A stretch of 64,000 nucleotides of DNA from Candidatus Binatia bacterium (lineage in GTDB: Bacteria; Desulfobacterota; Binatia; HRBIN30): positions 75,464-139,463 of the forward strand of contig JBBRSP010000014.1 of the NCBI GenBank assembly GCA_038245295.1, read 5' to 3'. This document shows, in pieces, positions 3,908 through 22,407 of the stretch (its first letter is position 1; each line of letters opens with the position of its first letter). The position numbers and the translations under genes are program-made. Below the pieces are notes generated by a model. That model did no database searches. It was not told where the DNA came from and was given only the letters and a program-made list of their open reading frames with translations.

Positions 3908-6900
3908 TCACCCAACCGCCGGGTCCCGCGGCCTGCCGCCGGCGTTGAGTTCGACGAAGAGTTCACAGCCGAGCGGACGCAAAACGGCCCGGGCTTCCGC
4001 GAGTGCGCTGGTTCGCCGCTCGGCGGAACGCGCCAGGCTTGCCTGATCGAGGTGAACCAGGGCCTGCTCCAGGGGCATATGTAAACGTGTCGCAATCGCC
4101 AGACTGCGTTGCCACGCCCGCTGCGCCGCGGCTTCATGCCCAGCCGCCGCCGACAGGCGAGCTCGAGCCCGATGAAAGGCCGGAGCAGCGATCGGAAACA
4201 AGAGCGCGAAGCGCCGCAGCGTCTGCATCGCCAGGCGAAGTTCGGGCGTCACATCACCACCCGCCTGGCGCAGCCAGAAGAGCACCTCCGCCGCTGCGGC
4301 GACACCATCGACACACTGCCCCGTCGCCGGCCATTCGCCGCGATTCAGGCGACCGGTCAGGCGGCGACAGGCGGCGGTCGCCACGGCGGTGTTACCGCAA
4401 TGAAGCGCGGCGCGGGCCAGCGTGCCGTCCAACATCACGTTGGAGAGCGTGTCCGGAAGGTGTTCGATCAAATCCTTTGCCGCGCTGGCGAGGGCGAACG
4501 CCTGCGCCGCCTCGCCGCGCGCGAGCAACGACCGCGCTGACATGAATTTGGCCCAGCCGACATGCTGAGCGTTCGAGCGGCGCGACGCCATGCGGCGAAC
4601 GTGCTCGATCTGCTCGTCGGCACCGACGACATCGCCGGCATAGTAGAACCCATGTGCCGCGATCGTCCGCGAGATCTCCGCCTCGTGGGCATCACTGATC
4701 GACTCGAACAGCTCGGCCGCTTCGATCCCCAAGGCGCGTGTCTCTTGCCAACGCGCCAACCCAACGCAGTGCATCGCCTCCAGGTAGAGAGCCAGGGCGC
4801 GGCCGCGCGTATCGCCGCGCCTGCGTGCCACGCGTTGCGCTTGCCCAAAATAATGTCGCGCGACGGTGCCGGCGCGCGCCGTGCCGAACACAAATCCCAG
4901 GTTGGCGTACGATTGCACAGTCGCCGCATCGGCGCCGCAGCGCTCGGCTGCCGCCAGACCACGCAGGATCGCCGCCAAGGTGCGCGTCGGGTCTCCCGCA
5001 AAGAAGTAGAGGGTCGACAACTGGTTCCAGGCCAGGGAAGCCTCAAGCACGACTTCCGAGGCTTCGCGGGACAACACCGGACGCCAACGCTGCGGCACAG
5101 CCAGGCCGACGACGCGACGGCCCGAAGCGCCTAACACGGCGCGTAATGCGCCGAGGCGCGATTCCGGGGGAGGCTTGCCGAGGCCGCGCAGCGCCTGCTC
5201 TGCATAAGCGATACTCTCGGATAGGTCGGCAACACCGAACGCAGCTACGCTAAGCATGCGCTGGCGCCGGGGTTGGCTGATGGCAGACGCGGGCGGCGCC
5301 GCCACCTCAGAGGCGCGCTGCAGCGCGGCGTAGGCTTCACCATACGCGCCGGCCCGCAGCGCGTATTCGCCGGCAAGATCAAACTAATGCGTTACGCGCT
5401 CGCCGTCGCCTGCCACAAACCAATGATGTGCCAATTGTGATGACAGGCCCTCCATCTCAGGCCGCCCGGCGTGGCGGGCCTCCAAAAGACGCGCGGCGCG
5501 CTCATGCAACTCCGGACGTCGTTGCGGCGATAGCTCGGCGTAGGCAACTTCGCGCAGTTGATCGTGCGAGAATCGCAGTTTGCCGTCGCCGGCATCGTCG
5601 AAGATTTGCCCCGCACCAGGGTCGACAGGACCTCCAGCTCGCGATCCCCGTCGAGCGACGCCAGCTGACGGAGCGCCGCCGCATCGAGCTCGCGACCAAA
5701 CACGGAGGCGGCCTGCACCACGTCCAACACGCCGGGCGGCAAGCGGCGCAGGCGGTCCAGAATGAGATTCTTCACGTTGCCCGGCAGCCAGAGAGCCACC
5801 GGCTCGCCGAAGGGACGTGGCCGCATCTGCCAATGGCCGCGGTCGCGCTGCAGAACCTCCGTCGCCACCGCAGCGCGCAGATACTCCCCGACAAAGAGTG
5901 GGTTGCCTTCGCATCGTTGCAGTAGTGCCTCCATCAGGTCGGCGGGCGGACGGGCGACCGCAAGCATGGCGCCGACCATCGTCGTGAGGCTTTGCGTATC
6001 CAGGCGTCCGAGCTCCAGCAGCGTCGCACCCGGACTCGCGGCCAGCCGTTCGACGGCCGGCGTGGCTTCACCGCTGCGATAGGTGCCCAGAAATACTGCC
6101 GGCATCTCGGCGGCGGCCCCGGCCGCCAGCGAGCTGAGGGCGGCAATCGACAAATCGTCCGCCCACTGCAGGTCATCGATCACCATCAAGGTTGGGGTGC
6201 GACGCATGAACGCGGCGATCGTTTCGATCAAGTCCGACAGTATGCGCGCCCTTGCCGCTTCACCATCCAGAGACTCGGGCTCCGGCTGGGAGTCGAAACC
6301 CGGCACCGAGGCTAGTGACGATTCAAAGGCGGCCAGAGTGCGGGCCCGCGGGCCGAGAATTTCAGCCGTAGCGGCAGCGCCGCCATAGCGGCAATCGTCA
6401 GCAATCGCGCGCAACAGCGGCACGAACGGGTGTAGCGCCGCGCCGTGCACCTCCGGACCTCCGGCGTTGGAACGGATTGGCAGGCACTCGCCCGTCAGCA
6501 CCCGCATGTGCGATTCGGTGGCCCGGCGCGTCGCCTCCATGGCAAAGCGTGTCTTCCCGACGCCGCTCTCCCCAGCCACCATCGCCACGCCACCGCGCCC
6601 CCGGCCAGCCTCGGCAAACAGGCCGTCCATCGTTGCCAGTGGATCGTTACGGCCGACGAAGCCGGCCCGATACAGGTAGGTCGGGGCAACTGTCGGATCG
6701 TCGTAGCCGCGTTCGCCGCTCATCTGTCGCAGCGCGGCAGCAATGTCCGAGGCGTAGCCCGGCCGCTCTGCCGGCTCATTGTGGAGCAGCGATAGGACGA
6801 GATCCTCGAGTGGGCGCGGCACATCGGCGAAGCACGACGGTCGCGGAGCGGCGGCGCGTGCCCGCCCAGTCCAGAGATCCCGCTCGGCCAGAGTGAACGG

Positions 6901-7542
6901 CAGACGCGCCGTCAGCGCCTCGTACATCATGATGCCGACAGAAAAGAGATCCGAGCGGGCATCGACATATTCGCCGCGAAACTGTTCTGGCGACATGTAG
7001 ATGGGCGTGCCGTAGATGAGCCCGCCCGCCTCGAGCGACTCGCGTGAGACGGCGCCCGCAAAGTGGCTGGCGAAGCCGAAATCGACCAGCACTGGCTCAT
7101 CGTTCGGGCGCAACATCACATTCGCCGGTTTGAGGTCGCGGTGCACCACCCCTTCGCCATGGAGAAAGGCAAGCGTATCGCACAGCCGCGCAAACAGCCT
7201 CGTGACGCGGGACGGCTCGACCGCATCGCGGCCAGCGTTCCAGCGTTCCTCAAGCGTCGGTTCCTCGAGTAGCTCCATGGCGTACCACGGCAGACCGTCC
7301 TCCACACCGTGATCCAGGATGGACACAACGCCAGAATGGCGGACACACGCCAGCGTGTAGATCTCGCGCCGCAGACATTCGAGATCTTCCCGATGCCGCG
7401 AGAACAAGGCCTTGAGCGCCACCGGCCGCTCAACATCGGGGTGGACCGCGCGGTACACGACGCCGCCGGCGCCCTGCGAGATCCTTGCAGTTATTCGATA
7501 CGGTCCGACCGAAGACGGCAAGGGAACTTCGGAATCGATCAT
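3908..7542 (-). pseudogene. Ser/Thr protein kinase + AAA (STAND-type) ATPase + TPR-like helical region, split by one frameshift (~5610) and one in-frame TAG (5384-5386)
   Basis: Kinase HRDLKPAN, DFG, GTPIYMSPE; Walker A GESGVGKT; IDDLQWAD; GNPLF. The conserved RFSHDQLREVAY and LAHHW motifs lie in a second frame (5384..5914), which continues past TAG in frame with ORF 3908..5305. Confidence 0.85.
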
Positions 7543-12090: not shown

Positions 12091-13251
12091 CTACGCGGCG
12101 ACGCCGGAAGCGGTCTCTTCCAATTGATCCACCCGCGGACCACGCGTCAGCCACGCCCCCGCCGCCTTGCGTCCGGCCGCCTGCATCGCCGCCAATACCG
12201 AGCGTTCGAAGTAGAGATACGAACCAGCATTGAAGCATTGTCCATCGCGCGCCGGCCGCACGGCTTCGTACAACTTTACCTCGCGATACCGCCCATCACT
12301 GCCCTCGGCGAGGCGATTGCGATCGAGCAGAAGCTTGCGGTCGACGTTGTACGCGTTCTCCAGGAAACTATCGACGGTGCGCTCGACGGCGCGTCCGAAA
12401 TGGGCAAACGGTGTCGCTTCTTCCTCGGCCGCTTCGGTCACCAGCACCGTAACGATCTCTTCCGCGCCCAGGGCAACGACGGGGGCCAGGGGGGTGTTGA
12501 CGAGAAGGCCGCCGTCCCACAGCAGGTAACCACCGACATTCACCGGTGGGAATAACAACGGGATGCTGCAGCTGGCCAGAACCATATCGACGGTGATGGC
12601 ATCGACGAGGTGGTAGTCGGGCGGCCGGGTCAACGGCGTCTCGGTGGTCACGAAGCGCACGACGCGCCCCGTGTGCGCATCGACGGTGTTGATCGCCAGA
12701 TGCACACCTCGGTTGGGGACCACGACTTCACCGCCGAACGCCTCGACGAGTCGGCCGCGCAGGCTGCTGGTGTCGGCCAGATACGGAACCGCGATTCCCT
12801 CCAGAAGATCACTCACCAACTCGAAGCGCGCGGTCAGCAGATACTCGACAATCAACGCCATGGCACTACCGCGCTCCGGCGGAAAGTGATGGCGGGCACG
12901 CTGTAAGAATGTCGTCCAACGTCGCCCCGGAATGATCGATTGAAGCACCTCACGGCCGGCCAGTCGGAGCAACGTCTGCACGGCGCTCCAGAAGAACCGC
13001 GAGCTCACCACGGCCGGTGGGTCGTCGGCGATGCCATTCCAGAACTCCATCATCTGGCGCGGCGTGTGACCGGCCGCAATGAAGGCGCTGTTGATGGCAC
13101 CGGCCGAGGTGCCCGAGAGAACTGTCGGCCCGTCGGAGAAACGCGGATCGCGCAACAAACGCTCGTAGACGCCGACCTGGAAGGCGCCGCGCGCCCCACC
13201 ACCCGAAAGGACAAGACCTAGTTTGCGATGCCGCCGCTTCGTCGTCGCCAT
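12091..13251 (-). CDS. Patatin-like phospholipase
   Basis: GGGARG, GTSAG nucleophile elbow and DGG motif. Confidence 0.92.
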   Translation of the reverse strand: MATTKRRHRKLGLVLSGGGARGAFQVGVYERLLRDPRFSDGPTVLSGTSAGAINSAFIAAGHTPRQMMEFWNGIADDPPAVVSSRFFWSAVQTLLRLAGREVLQSIIPGRRWTTFLQRARHHFPPERGSAMALIVEYLLTARFELVSDLLEGIAVPYLADTSSLRGRLVEAFGGEVVVPNRGVHLAINTVDAHTGRVVRFVTTETPLTRPPDYHLVDAITVDMVLASCSIPLLFPPVNVGGYLLWDGGLLVNTPLAPVVALGAEEIVTVLVTEAAEEEATPFAHFGRAVERTVDSFLENAYNVDRKLLLDRNRLAEGSDGRYREVKLYEAVRPARDGQCFNAGSYLYFERSVLAAMQAAGRKAAGAWLTRGPRVDQLEETASGVAA

Positions 13252-13423
13252 GGGCTCTCCCTCCCGCAACCACCCCTCAAAGTTCCGCAACAATTCAACG
13301 TCTGGTCACAGTCTCGCGTTTTGCGCCGCTTTTCAACCGAAACCGTGGAGGCAGGATGTTCGGTGTTACGGGCAGCGCCGCGTTCCCGCTCCTAACACCC
13401 CAACCCCTTGGCACTCTAAGACG

Positions 13424-13906
13424 TCACTGCGCCTCTGCCTTGCACAAGATGCCGGCGGCGAGGAAAAACGTGCCGGTCTTGTTCACCGCCATGCTGTAGA
13501 TGTCGGCTTGGCCGGCCGGCTCGACCTTCCCAACGCGCCACGCGTGCGTCGATACACGCTTCTCGTTTTTCTTCTGATCGTCGTATTCGTAGCCTTCGGG
13601 GTAATGATGCGCCGCCTCGAGATCGTCGCCCACCTGGAGATCCGCGGCTCGCACCTCGACCATGCCACGTTTGAAGAGCACCTGGTCGGCACCAACCCGA
13701 AAGCTGGCGCCTGCTTCCAGCGTCACCTTCAGGACAGGCTGCGCTTCGGCAACTTGGCGAGCGTTGATCATGGCGCGGAAACGCACGCGGCCATTCTCCT
13801 CGCGCGTGAATACGGACATCGCCTTGCCGGCAACACCCTTGACGGTCATCGCCCCCTCGGGCGTCTCCACCTTCGTATCGGAAGCCAGCGCACACACACC
13901 ACTCAT
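13424..13906 (-). CDS. Stand-alone, catalytically degenerate intein-like Hint domain protein
   Basis: Block A-like ALASDTKVETPEG, block B-like VLKVTLEAGASFRVGADQVLF, AADLQVGDDL, block F/G-like VEPAGQADIYSMAV...FFLAAGILCKA; GAGGTG RBS. Confidence 0.75.
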   Translation of the reverse strand: MSGVCALASDTKVETPEGAMTVKGVAGKAMSVFTREENGRVRFRAMINARQVAEAQPVLKVTLEAGASFRVGADQVLFKRGMVEVRAADLQVGDDLEAAHHYPEGYEYDDQKKNEKRVSTHAWRVGKVEPAGQADIYSMAVNKTGTFFLAAGILCKAEAQ

Positions 13907-13987
13907 ACGGCACCTCGCAATGCGCGCCGCTTAGCGCGGATACAGAAGTCGGTCTAGCGCCCTGATCGACGTCGCGTCGGCTGAGGT

Positions 13988-14011
13988 CGCAGGCTGAAGC
14001 CTGCGGCTACC
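13988..14011 (-). repeat. GTAG-type REP (GGTAGCCGCAGGCTTCAGCCTGCG)
   Basis: GTAG head plus CGCAGGCT/AGCCTGCG palindrome; near-identical copy at ~32427-32450. Confidence 0.75.
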
Positions 14012-14032
14012 GCCTGGGGAATGCGGCCCGCT

Positions 14033-15241
14033 TCACGCCGACAATCGAGCAATCAACGCCGGACGTTTCATCAACGCACGCCAGGCAGTCTCGACCTCGG
14101 CTTTCGAGAGACTGCGGACGATACGTTCGATCTCTTCGGGCGGGGGCACACCGAGCAGTGTGTTTTCGGCGAGAGCCAGGGCACGATCGAAGCGACTGTG
14201 CGCCAGCGACGCATACCGGTAGCGCAACTTCTTGCGGCCGCGCTCGATCTCGTCCGGCGTGAAACCATCGCGGGCGGCGTGTTCACAAACATCCGTGATT
14301 GCACCCTCCAGACGCGCCAACGAACGGTGCGCGGCGCTGGCCGAAATCGTCACCACCGCCCAGTCGGGGCCCCAATCCAGATGGGCTCCGACTTCGTAGC
14401 CGAGACCGAGACGTTCGCGGATTTCCTGGAAGAGGCGACTATCCGGATCGGCGCCGACCAGATCGAGGGCCACGCCGGCGGCGGCGATTTGCCGCGGTAT
14501 CGGGGTCACGGGCATCATACGCAGGATGAATCCCTGTCCACCGTCGTCGCGCACACGCACCGGTCGCACCGCGTGACCATACTGCACTTTGCGTGGCTTT
14601 GGCGGCTCCAACGAGCTCTTGTGCGAGAAGCTGCGTTTTACGGCACCCTTGGCCGCCTCAAACTCGACGCCACCAACCAGCGACAAGACGCTGCGCCCAT
14701 GTGTGAAGTGTGTTGCGATGAAGGCGGCCACATCCGCGGCCTGCATTTGCCGCAGGCTCTGCATGCTGCCCCAGACGGGATGGGCCAATGGGCCGCTGAA
14801 GAAGTTGCACCAGGCACGTTGGTGTAGGCGTTCAATCGGATCGTCGATGCGACCGCGCGCTTCGTCCATGACGACGTGCCGCTCCTTGCGGAAGCGCCTC
14901 TCGTCGACCTGGCTGTGATAAAACTGCTCGGCCAACAACTCGAGCGCGTCGCCAACGTCTTCATTGAAGACTTCGAAGGTCAACGAGATGTTCTCGTAGC
15001 CGGTGTCGGCATTGTGCTCGCCGCCCAGCTCGGCAGCGCGACGATTGAGAGCCACCTGATCGAAAAGACGGGTTCCCTGGAACAGCATGTGTTCCGACAT
15101 GTGGGCGATCCCGGGGAAGCGCTCGTCGAAGCGGGCTCCGGCGCGAATGGAAAGAGCAATGGCGGTAAGTGGTCCGGGCATCTGCTGATGGACGACGCGC
15201 AATCCACGCTGCGAGAACCGGCGGACGGTGTTTGAAATCAT
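14033..15241 (-). CDS. M16 family (pitrilysin-like) zinc metallopeptidase
   Basis: GIAHMSEH (HxxEH), NADT, SRLFQEIRERLGL. Confidence 0.92.
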   Translation of the reverse strand: MISNTVRRFSQRGLRVVHQQMPGPLTAIALSIRAGARFDERFPGIAHMSEHMLFQGTRLFDQVALNRRAAELGGEHNADTGYENISLTFEVFNEDVGDALELLAEQFYHSQVDERRFRKERHVVMDEARGRIDDPIERLHQRAWCNFFSGPLAHPVWGSMQSLRQMQAADVAAFIATHFTHGRSVLSLVGGVEFEAAKGAVKRSFSHKSSLEPPKPRKVQYGHAVRPVRVRDDGGQGFILRMMPVTPIPRQIAAAGVALDLVGADPDSRLFQEIRERLGLGYEVGAHLDWGPDWAVVTISASAAHRSLARLEGAITDVCEHAARDGFTPDEIERGRKKLRYRYASLAHSRFDRALALAENTLLGVPPPEEIERIVRSLSKAEVETAWRALMKRPALIARLSA

Positions 15242-20806: not shown

Positions 20807-21457
20807 CTATGGATTGCGGGCGCGGTGGGCTTGGCGGGCTTTGGTCATGCGTTCGCGTAGGCCTCCTTGTTCTAGAAAATCTTGCTCCAGGCGGCGTAGT
20901 TGTTGGTCGATGAGGTAACTGGTCTGATGGATGAGACAGATGGCTATGTTAGCCACCACGGCAGGCGGGCGGGTTTCGACGAAGGCGCGGTATAGCTCGT
21001 AGGTTTGTGGGGTCTTGCGTCCCAGGGTGCGCACGTACTGCGCCTCTTTGGAGTCTTTGTCCCAGATCGGCAGGTCGCGGGCTCGCAAGTAATCTTTGTA
21101 GTCGTCGAGCACTTCTTCCAGGCTGGCTCTAGCGACATTCGTGAGCTTGAGCTCCATCTCTTTCGATGCTCGGCCGGCTTTGCTGCCCTCGAGGATGTTC
21201 TTCTTGCCCGAGCGCGCCGCCTGGATCATCTGGTCGATGGTGCGGTCGCCGCGCGACAGGAACTTGTGAGCAAAGCGATAGGTGAGATCGTAGACGACTT
21301 CGGCTTTTTGGAAGGACAACAGGGTTTGGTAGTCGCCGCGCGGTGGCAGGAGGCGAGTCGGCTCATGCGAGGGATGGGAAGGATGCGATGCATGTCCGCC
21401 ATTCTTCCCCTGCCTCCCATCCTTCCCATTGGTTGCCGTCGCCACAAAGGCCACCAT
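20807..21457 (-). CDS. Four helix bundle protein with C-terminal suffix domain; start uncertain
   Basis: Y..L.SFQKA..VYD.T, RT.DQMIQAARSGK.NI.EG, ARASLEE...DY.DYL and the suffix FLEQGGLRERM. Confidence 0.88.
   Translation of the reverse strand: MVAFVATATNGKDGRQGKNGGHASHPSHPSHEPTRLLPPRGDYQTLLSFQKAEVVYDLTYRFAHKFLSRGDRTIDQMIQAARSGKKNILEGSKAGRASKEMELKLTNVARASLEEVLDDYKDYLRARDLPIWDKDSKEAQYVRTLGRKTPQTYELYRAFVETRPPAVVANIAICLIHQTSYLIDQQLRRLEQDFLEQGGLRERMTKARQAHRARNP
21374..21429. repeat. 12-bp perfect inverted repeat ATGGGAAGGATG/CATCCTTCCCAT built from 9-mer units at the 5' end of the four-helix-bundle gene
   Basis: 21374-21385 pairs with 21418-21429. Confidence 0.7.
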
Positions 21458-21504
21458 CCGCAACCGCCGCTGCCAAGCAATGGCTGCATCGCATCGATGC
21501 AACC

Positions 21505-22407
21505 TCAGTGCTGGTTCAAACAGCTCTGCGGCAACCCGAGACGCTTGCACGCATCCGCCGGCGGACTTCCCGGAAGCACCACATAGTCGGCGAGCACTCC
21601 GAGTGAGCGGATGATACTGGGCTCGATCGCGCCGAGGCCGAAGCTGGCATCCAGGCCGAGCCGATCACGTACCCACCCTGGCGTGATCTCGACAGCGGCG
21701 CGAATGAGCATCGACTGCACACCGCCGAGCGGCCACGGAAAGATCGGCGTGCGGTGCAGGATCTCCAGAAATTCGAAAACAATCTCGGAACGCTCGAGCT
21801 TTGGACCCATGGCCTGCATCAGCTCATCCATCGCCGCACACGAGCTGGGCGCAGCAAGAGCACCATAGAGACGCGCCGCCTGCGAACCTTCCTTATAGAA
21901 GGCATCGCGATCGGCAGCGCCGAGCGGACGCACGAAACGGCAATACGCTTCGAGAAAGCCGAAGCTGGCGGTTGCCTGGACCCAATCGAGAAGCTCCGGA
22001 TCATCGGCGCGATAGGCGACGCCGTCGGGCGTCGTGCCTTGCACACGCGCGTGCATGCGGCCGATGCCGGCGATCATCTTCTCGGCGGTGCGCCGCGGTC
22101 CGTAGACGGTGACCATCGCGGCGATGCCGGTGCGTTGCATGCGCGCCAACGGATCGGTGCGGAAACTGGTGTGATCCCAGACGCCGCTACGGACCCGCGG
22201 CTCGGCGAGCTCGAGGATGACGGCGCTTATGCCACCGATGAACAAGCCGATGGGGTTCTTGAAAACCTGCCAGGTCACACCGCCCGCCGGTGCCAGCGAC
22301 TCTTCCCCGGCCGGGCCGCTGAAGTCGATGTCCAAACCCTTCGGTGGCGGCGGCATGGCGCGCCGCATGATCTCGCGCAGGCTTGTCGGGATCGGGCCGA
22401 TGCTCAT
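21505..22407 (-). CDS. MpaB/DUF2236 oxygenase-family protein
   Basis: GG..A..L.LAEPRV..GV.DH, DP..R..RT, H.RV.G and YRADDPELLDWV. Confidence 0.87.
   Translation of the reverse strand: MSIGPIPTSLREIMRRAMPPPPKGLDIDFSGPAGEESLAPAGGVTWQVFKNPIGLFIGGISAVILELAEPRVRSGVWDHTSFRTDPLARMQRTGIAAMVTVYGPRRTAEKMIAGIGRMHARVQGTTPDGVAYRADDPELLDWVQATASFGFLEAYCRFVRPLGAADRDAFYKEGSQAARLYGALAAPSSCAAMDELMQAMGPKLERSEIVFEFLEILHRTPIFPWPLGGVQSMLIRAAVEITPGWVRDRLGLDASFGLGAIEPSIIRSLGVLADYVVLPGSPPADACKRLGLPQSCLNQH

Follow-up and report, generated by a model that had tools for sequence, protein, structure and literature searches.

Stand-alone Hint-fold proteins of the Binatia, apparently splicing-dead and descended from ribonucleotide-reductase inteins

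What use is an intein-like domain that has neither a protein to be spliced from nor the residues to splice with? The question is posed by a 160-amino-acid reading frame on the minus strand of the window (the whole stretch of Candidatus Binatia DNA analysed here, 64,000 nt), which the original prediction took to encode a free-standing, catalytically dead Hint protein domesticated for some other role. All of the motifs quoted in that prediction are found in the frame; Cys5 and Cys155 are, as it claimed, the only cysteines; and the ribosome-binding site proposed for it is present. A codon model trained on the genome prefers the 13424-13906 frame to the shadow ORFs overlapping it.

13424..13906, minus strand: gene for a stand-alone, apparently splicing-dead Hint-fold protein (P0002), 160 aa, from the ORF, the predicted fold, the codon model and homologues
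13911..13916, minus strand: Shine-Dalgarno-like GAGGTG, 4 nt 5' of the ATG, read in the sequence; function putative

The co-oriented neighbours named originally, an M16 peptidase upstream and a patatin downstream, are both there. A scan of positions 13100-14200 found no sigma-70-type promoter, and, on the opposite strand, a single site resembling a terminator, which is what chance would give. Apart from GC-rich words, no upstream 8-mer is common to the host families described below; one of these, f116, has a recurring GATTG(C/T)GACA-like word, seen by eye, in the intergenic DNA before the gene, twice in some loci. The short polar leaders of the proteins are, by eye, unlike signal peptides, and the window protein is probably a small cytoplasmic one. 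Elsewhere on the minus strand of the window, overlapping frames at 5384-5914 and 3908-5305 come after a Ser/Thr kinase and AAA ATPase frame (5392-7542), suggesting one large gene (3908-7542) broken by a frameshift or sequencing error; and a gene at 20807-21550, adjoining a dTDP-glucose dehydratase-like gene, weakly matches the 23S rRNA intervening-sequence (four-helix bundle) family.

Taken alone, the sequence evidence for an intein is weak: the Pfam Intein_splicing match to the window protein has an E-value of 0.0049 (17.1 bits, against a cut-off of 35.8), a single-sequence search of the PDB with this protein gave no intein match, a profile search of the PDB matched inteins weakly (best E 0.003), and PF14890 is matched at E 0.01 by 36 of 66 close homologues. 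It is the predicted structure that settles the identity. The AlphaFold2 model (pLDDT 92.5, pTM 0.86) was compared with known structures, as had been proposed in advance, and Hint structures were recovered: every row listed by Foldseek against the PDB is a Hint-fold structure (best E 7.5e-9), and VIA-align superposes the model on the Mtu RecA intein (2imz) with Z 20.1 and rmsd 2.2 A over 134 residues, where the best non-Hint chain among 48,161 reaches Z 2.0. An ESM Atlas model of a member from another family, f5, has TM 0.77-0.80 to Hint domains. The comparison confirms the model of the window protein as that of a complete Hint domain.

Residues 6..157 of the model align to intein residues 1..440 of 2imz, and likewise to 5o9i, 1dq3 and 2cw8, which sets the register: Ala6 is intein position 1 and Ala157 the position of the terminal Asn. 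The register proposed originally, with Cys5 at -1 and Cys155 at block G5, is thereby borne out. The corresponding features, all on the minus strand, are:

13436..13891, minus strand: Hint domain, residues 6-157 (intein position 1 to the terminal-Asn position), by structural alignment
13889..13894, minus strand: vestigial N-terminal splice junction, Cys5 (-1) and Ala6 (position 1, normally Cys/Ser), by structural register and alignment
13682..13693, minus strand: block B remnant, Gly72-x-x-Gln75 in place of Thr-x-x-His, by alignment
13544..13609, minus strand: insert at the endonuclease-insertion site, residues 100-121, with an aromatic F/W-x-Y/F-P-x-G-Y motif and a short hairpin, by conservation and model
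13493..13495, minus strand: block F4 position, Ser138 (Asp in many class 1 inteins, Cys in class 3), by alignment
13433..13444, minus strand: vestigial C-terminal junction, Cys155 (G5), Lys156, Ala157 (terminal-Asn position) and Glu158 (+1), by alignment

At its catalytic positions the window protein reads Ala, Gly, Gln, Ser, Lys-Ala and Glu, in agreement with the losses first described (Ala1, Gly72/Gln75, Ser138 and Lys-Ala). Since both splicing residues and exteins are missing, we infer that it does not splice. The same positions were read across 62 distinct members kept for residue counts, from nine host families. Position 1 may be A, G, R, C, S, E, Q or V, with Cys or Ser in 9 of 62. The block B Thr (B7) is found in none of the 62, against 13 of 13 true inteins; B12, Leu77 in the window protein, is never Trp; and F4 is Cys in one member and Asp in one. 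Terminal Asn or Gln is likewise absent throughout, the single Asp at this position having no residue after it, while +1 is Thr in one member and never Cys or Ser, so that no member combines a terminal Asn, Gln or Asp with a +1 Cys, Ser or Thr.

The site is nonetheless not uniformly degenerate. B10 is Gln in 38 members and His in 24, with no other residue, and its neighbour in the cleft varies with it: G5 is Cys or Ser in 23 of the 24 His75 members, whereas it is Gly, Leu or Ala in 17 of the 38 with Gln75, among them ten f113 members with Gln75 and Gly155. The -1 residue is Cys or Ser in all 36 members of the window's own order, and R, S, G, T, A or P in the other 26. All six f117 members have a Gly|Cys1 junction, His at B10, Cys155, and a short basic leader with a further Cys at -4; all nine of f5 have His75, His145, Cys155 and Glu157. 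Judged by these residues, the old cleft is under lineage-specific constraint, which runs counter to a simple "dead" reading. A glutamine can mimic the non-catalytic NE2 side of histidine, which would make the His/Gln contact at B10 a structural one. Should any member still cleave itself at the N-terminus, or carry a CxxxC redox motif, the f117 proteins are the likeliest; those of f116 begin with a proline-rich extension and read Arg at position 1 (8 of 8). An explanation of the C-terminal Cys-Gly-Glu in f5 as the +1 extein of a ribonucleotide reductase (RNR), left by a three-residue deletion, was set aside, since the intein P0114 aligns without gaps.

How widely is this architecture found? A first protein search, which could not have revealed longer forms, returned 66 proteins including the query, of 130-187 aa and at least 54% identity. 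When 1.84 billion representatives were searched with a profile, more distant members of ~150-175 aa appeared, and beyond these long intein-bearing proteins. In all 62 members examined the frame is open, at 152-176 aa, with a leader of 2-19 residues and a tail of 0-13 (5 and 3 in the window protein). In 14 of 15 loci there is an in-frame stop no more than 44 codons upstream of the match; in the fifteenth a start codon lies just before the domain. The stand-alone architecture claimed for the window protein is thus that of the family. Record titles for the fifteen loci are mostly Candidatus Binatia or Deltaproteobacteria, with a few other labels. A search for longer fused forms of P0002 passed none of 925 candidates, which is weak evidence; P0082 (402 aa), considered as a fusion, has an N-terminal match followed by low-complexity sequence and is read as a frameshifted or mis-called member. 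Two other proteins met in these searches stand apart: P0207, an apparently stand-alone 161-aa protein on a 1677-base contig, has Ser1, block B Thr-x-x-Gln and a terminal Arg-Asn|Thr, and falls on a long branch among true inteins; and P0083, of 7077 aa, has 31 stretches matching the family profile, possibly very many inteins or Hint repeats.

Strong matches, at E 2e-27 or better, were sought in 400 further genomes of the class: nine Binatia families account for all of them, with 108 of 124 genomes matching, against 0 of 276 in the other eleven families. By family, carriage is 19/25 in f1 (the window's own), 3/3 in f2, 17/18 in f113, 5/5 in f114, 4/8 in f115, 18/20 in f116, 23/25 in f5, 18/19 in f117 and 1/1 in f123. 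Nine genomes were taken out of an automatic tally of 118, two with divergent f6 genes and seven with weak matches in frames of 669-1417 aa, read collectively, not one by one, as true inteins. Where a genome has a second match, it is an intein or a fragment at a contig edge, and the gene is thus present essentially once per genome. Sampling of 387 genomes of the phylum beyond the class gave 6 with weak N-terminal matches in long frames. In the ESM Atlas the family is an unnamed cluster of 77, with Binatota the commonest taxon; the Binatia (Binatota) are described as an uncultured lineage (PMC8262859, in the part available). On the viral side, none of 131 pattern matches in viral contigs was confirmed, and a viral fold library gave generic Hint matches alone, at 7-23% identity.

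The gene was not found in six f1 genomes; five of these were searched again at E 1, with nothing recovered and the M16 peptidase retained. It is therefore dispensable. In loci L106-L110 (genera g259 and g263) it is cleanly absent downstream of the M16 peptidase, with other genes in its place. A second, far more divergent stand-alone Hint-like gene of ~170-195 aa is present in 5 of 61 genomes of f6, including 4 of 4 in one genus (L100-L104, in G772, G797, G762, G789 and G687); it has Gln at B10, Cys1 in 3 of 5, no terminal Asn and no aromatic insert motif, and its placement in the tree is without firm support.

Within the nine families the gene has mostly followed its hosts. In a maximum-likelihood tree f113, f5, f116, f117, f114 and f115 each form one clade with starred support, six of the eight multi-member host families, and f1 and f2 are not separated from each other. 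Selection was assessed by the Nei-Gojobori method on 291 within-family pairs, which are not independent and in which dS is probably underestimated at high GC; dN/dS is below 1, as the original prediction had proposed to check, in every one of the 250 pairs with dS 0.02-2 (median 0.33, range 0.10-0.93, and 0.13 in the closest pair). At nine loci, identity to the window protein is 50-61%, compared with 58-64% for the adjacent M16 peptidase. This dead Hint family has descended vertically and under purifying selection. A neutrally decaying intein remnant might also have lost all of its catalytic residues, gone missing from some relatives and reached a dN/dS of 0.93 in one pair, but it would hardly be expected to keep its frame intact in 62 of 62 members and its place in 108 of 124 genomes, to stay below a ratio of 1 throughout and to diverge much as a neighbouring enzyme does, and this explanation is scarcely credible. 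The domestication originally claimed agrees with distribution, tree and selection alike, and a domesticated, splicing-dead Hint family is well supported.

The source of the family can be traced. Of the top 20 profile hits among long proteins, 17 have an intein inserted in class II RNR at NP|C...N|CGE (16 parsed by script and one read manually). A quick tree of 17 members and 34 inteins places the family as one clade (SH-aLRT 100) inside the RNR-site inteins (97); three rows labelled "other" within the RNR clade share this NP context, the search pattern having cut them wrongly. The intein set consists of hits to the family's own profile, and the quick tree does not fix the exact donor, but on these sequences it shows a single origin among RNR-type inteins. 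The host's own RNR is free of inteins. Several RNR-site inteins bear an HNH endonuclease (HNH_3 hits), and the start of their HNH region, Y-x-Y-x-A-N-x-K-G-Y, resembles by eye the F/W-x-Y/F-P-x-G-Y motif of the family, after which the AlphaFold2 model predicts a hairpin, acidic or variable in sequence; the insert at residues 100-121 is probably a stub of the ancestral HNH region. On the tree, the distribution and the selection together, the host gene, most of the endonuclease and the splicing chemistry of a class II RNR intein were lost a single time, in the ancestor of one branch of Binatia, and what remained was kept as an independent gene. An intact-looking mini-intein of gyrase subunit A (L079, at G403:C207, and P0138) has C-terminal blocks much like those of the window protein and groups apart from the family in trees.

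If the domain was kept, for what? One reading is that the dead site has been rebuilt for a new thiol chemistry in trans, as a free-standing Hint enzyme or a redox/metal sensor, using His75 with Cys/Ser155 (or Cys1) in the early-branching families and Cys/Ser at -1, Gln75 and Cys155 in the window's order. It can be held only tentatively, well short of even odds; if true, this would be a role not found for any Hint domain in the literature searched.

Its sensor form, a switch in which Cys5, Cys155 and Gln75 or His75 form a disulfide or bind Zn or Cu so as to sense or buffer redox state or metal, is the role first suggested for the cysteine pair. Both cysteines are present in 58 of 66 close homologues, and the pair may be important in the window's own lineage. 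Residue 155 maps, at the end of the aligned range and assuming no gap, to Thr143 of MchDnaB1, a member of that intein's active-site triad Cys124-His65-Thr143 (PMC7664689, in the sections available), which probably places Cys155 in the cleft, close to the N-terminus. Zn or Cu binding and junction disulfides are described for inteins and for Hedgehog Hint domains (PMC8529194, likewise in part), and the f5 and f117 residues listed above (His75/His145/Cys155/Glu157 and Cys1/His75/Cys155) are possible ligands elsewhere. Family-wide, though, the suggestion is not supported: the pair occurs in just 16 of 62 members across the nine families, with the first cysteine alone in 12, the second alone in 22 and neither in 12, so that each is lost while the other stays and several members are free of cysteine; Cys5 is Ser in 8 of 36 members of the window's own order; and the Hedgehog disulfide, in the account available, links position 1 to the terminal position, not -1 to G5. 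Such a switch is possible but rather unlikely.

The enzymatic form supposes that a kept or re-evolved nucleophile either removes the short leader or serves a hydrolase or acyl-transferase activity in trans, on the model of Hedgehog, which uses the first splicing step alone. There are candidate nucleophiles in Cys1 (f117, with its Gly|Cys junction, His B10 and extra leader Cys), in His75 with Cys/Ser155 (the His clades) and in Cys/Ser at -1 (the window's order); the covariation of B10 with G5 fits the idea; and inteins that lose the block B His can compensate for it (PMC7664689 and PMC7765530, in the parts available). The window protein itself, however, has Ala1 and Gln75, the block B Thr is missing from all 62 members, and ten in f113 have the combination Gln75 and Gly155. 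Leaders of 2-19 unconserved residues, sometimes Met plus one, offer little to transfer, and Ser at G5 stands beside His B10 in 3 of 13 true RNR inteins, so that the pairing may be structural. Rebuilt catalysis is accordingly doubtful.

The genes around the family might have named a partner. The original prediction set the gene among M16 and patatin neighbours and proposed a test of their conservation, but an M16 gene is directly upstream in 8 of 15 loci (nearby in 9 of 15) and patatin present in 1 of 15; a beta-propeller gene, pyrE and M16 are upstream in part of f1 and in f114. In f5 the upstream genes are dnaA and an HTH gene, with a uracil-DNA glycosylase (UDG) downstream in 9 of 9, as in 2 of 2 of f115; f113 has the gene in an EF-G-like gene region and f116 near a ClpB-like gene (the dnaA, EF-G and ClpB labels were read from sequence, not from family scans). 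Neighbours are kept within families and change between them. A conserved partner was rejected on these grounds, the M16/patatin context being lineage-specific and not a system. Co-distribution with host RNR was also rejected, an RNR match being present in 45 of 48 genomes regardless of carriage.

The UDG of f5 and f115 and the dnaA and HTH genes of f5, together with the resemblance of the insert to the start of an HNH region, are what would be expected of nucleic-acid binding through that retained region and R35, R44 and K/R156. Net charge (K+R minus D+E) instead ranges from -6 to +3 and is negative in most members, the window protein standing at 0. The hairpin that follows G-Y has an acidic or variable sequence, and the UDG link is missing from the other seven families; binding of this kind is quite improbable.

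A role as trans modulator or decoy for host or phage inteins, for instance by capturing split-intein halves, was another of the original suggestions. The family does descend from an RNR intein, and intein C-terminal motifs were found in 8 of 24 carriers against 3 of 24 comparison genomes without the main family, small and related samples. But 16 of the 24 carriers have no such motif (as do 21 of the 24 comparison genomes), and host RNR matches are uninterrupted in most genomes. The gene is single copy, slow to change and set among housekeeping neighbours, all of which is unlike a defence gene; PADLOC and PHROGs matched 0 of 37 members each, and no viral relative with A1 patterns was found. The window's own genome has one other intein that was found, with Cys1 and His-Asn|Ser intact (G000:C66:3863-6826, minus strand; L017, L018 and L020), in a 987-aa frame that we take from its appearance to be a phage portal protein. 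The suggestion has proved weak, and modulation of other inteins is very improbable.

Among the non-splicing roles proposed at the outset, then, the redox/metal switch is not supported family-wide and the intein modulator is weak, and the binding scaffold is left. A domesticated, non-catalytic binding or scaffold protein is the leading reading, at a probability of roughly 0.55, reached by elimination of the alternatives and not by a positive binding test. The dead Hint domain would bind a protein or small ligand non-enzymatically through a constant part of the molecule, proposed to be E14, E/D17, T34-R35, F43-R44 and the aromatic F/W-x-Y/F-P-x-G-Y hairpin, while the old active-site cleft would have been refilled differently in each lineage, which would make cysteines there lineage-specific. 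The near-invariant non-Gly residues (out of 62: E14 in 61, Glu/Asp17 in 62, T34 in 56, R35 in 58, F43 in 62, R44 in 51, and in the insert an aromatic at 100 and 102, P103 in 54 and Y106 in 61) fall outside the catalytic positions, and no catalytic set is common to all members. E14, the acid at 17 and R35 are more fixed in the family than in 13 true inteins. T34, F43-R44, the aromatic at 100 and G-Y were already present in the ancestral RNR inteins, however, and residues so inherited may just stabilise the fold, which counts against binding. So does the old cleft, which is not free to drift, B10 being His or Gln in 62 of 62. Neither the gene neighbours, which vary by family, nor co-distribution with RNR recovered a partner.

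How, finally, does the family compare with Hint systems already described? The closest sequences are class 1 inteins at the RNR site (P0106, P0114, P0141 and others), at 80-88 bits, with colinear Hint blocks and shared motifs. These have a host protein, Cys1, Thr-x-x-His, a terminal Asn and a +1 Cys, and may be mini-inteins or bear HNH; the family lacks exteins, the terminal Asn and the block B Thr, and of the HNH region it has a stub alone. The solved mini-inteins 2imz, NpuDnaB (4o1r), NrdJ-1 (8ubs) and gp41-1 (6riz) have the same fold as the window protein (Z 18.5-20.1, rmsd 1.8-2.2 A) at 17-19% identity, but splice. In the window protein every class 1 feature, whether exteins, Cys/Ser1, Thr-x-x-His, or terminal Asn and +1 nucleophile, is absent. 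Class 2 (KlbA) inteins share its Ala1 but keep the terminal Asn and +1 Cys that it lacks; class 3 (WCT) inteins also have Ala1, but need Trp at B12, Cys at F4 and Thr at G5 (both from the available sections of PMC7664689), where the window protein has Leu77, Ser138 and Cys155.

The Hedgehog Hint domain (1at0, Z 17.6) and 2lwy (Z 18.2, in the Hedgehog/BIL group) resemble the window protein in having the Hint fold without full splicing. Hedgehog and BIL-A/BIL-B domains are, however, described as parts of larger proteins that autoprocess (PMC7765530, in the part available); unlike Hedgehog and BIL-B, the window protein lacks a flanking domain as well as Cys1 and the block B His. The f117 proteins do share the Gly|Cys junction and block B His with Hedgehog/BIL, but lack the Thr and any fused domain. 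BIL-A and polymorphic-toxin Hint domains end in His-Asn within larger, variable proteins (same source), where the stand-alone window protein has Lys-Ala. On its residues, none of the 62 members would be classed as a class 1, 2 or 3 intein or a BIL under the definitions in the available parts of PMC7664689 and PMC7765530.

The Hint families covered in the available parts of the reviews (inteins, Hedgehog, BIL-A and BIL-B) all self-process. The present family works unlike any of them and falls outside the definition of each. The AXH domain of ataxin-1 and HBP1 is a non-catalytic interaction domain grouped with Hint by Pfam, eukaryotic and found in large proteins. PF14890 and PF08517 occur together on one Atlas cluster close to the query (score 0.89, a lead alone); the AXH family PF08517 had no match at E 0.01 in the 66 members and was not among the fold-search matches listed. 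Open-licence PubMed Central and bioRxiv texts yielded no description of this family, nor of any dead, stand-alone Hint protein from bacteria; the part available of 10.1101/2025.01.02.630785 concerns free-standing endonucleases, not Hint domains.

Selection has kept just the splicing-dead Hint fold, in nine families and at the rate of a neighbouring enzyme, which implies that the fold is useful apart from splicing. This bears on the question of whether inteins are parasites alone. The route by which an RNR intein became a cellular gene can be traced through graded intermediates, with Cys1 and His still present in f117 and both gone from the window's own order. Although the hosts are uncultured, the family also offers small, expressible proteins in which a Hint domain could be examined without its chemistry. 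The nearest parallel is yeast HO/WHO, described as intein-derived, stand-alone, extein-less and non-splicing, with HO domesticated (PMC7282813, in the part available); the architecture and residues of the present family have these same stand-alone, extein-less and non-splicing features. HO works through an endonuclease and a zinc finger (same source) and was kept for its nuclease. In the 66 members neither LAGLIDADG nor zinc finger has a Pfam match, and proteins of 152-176 aa leave no room for them; here the endonuclease has gone, and it is the dead Hint fold alone that has been kept.
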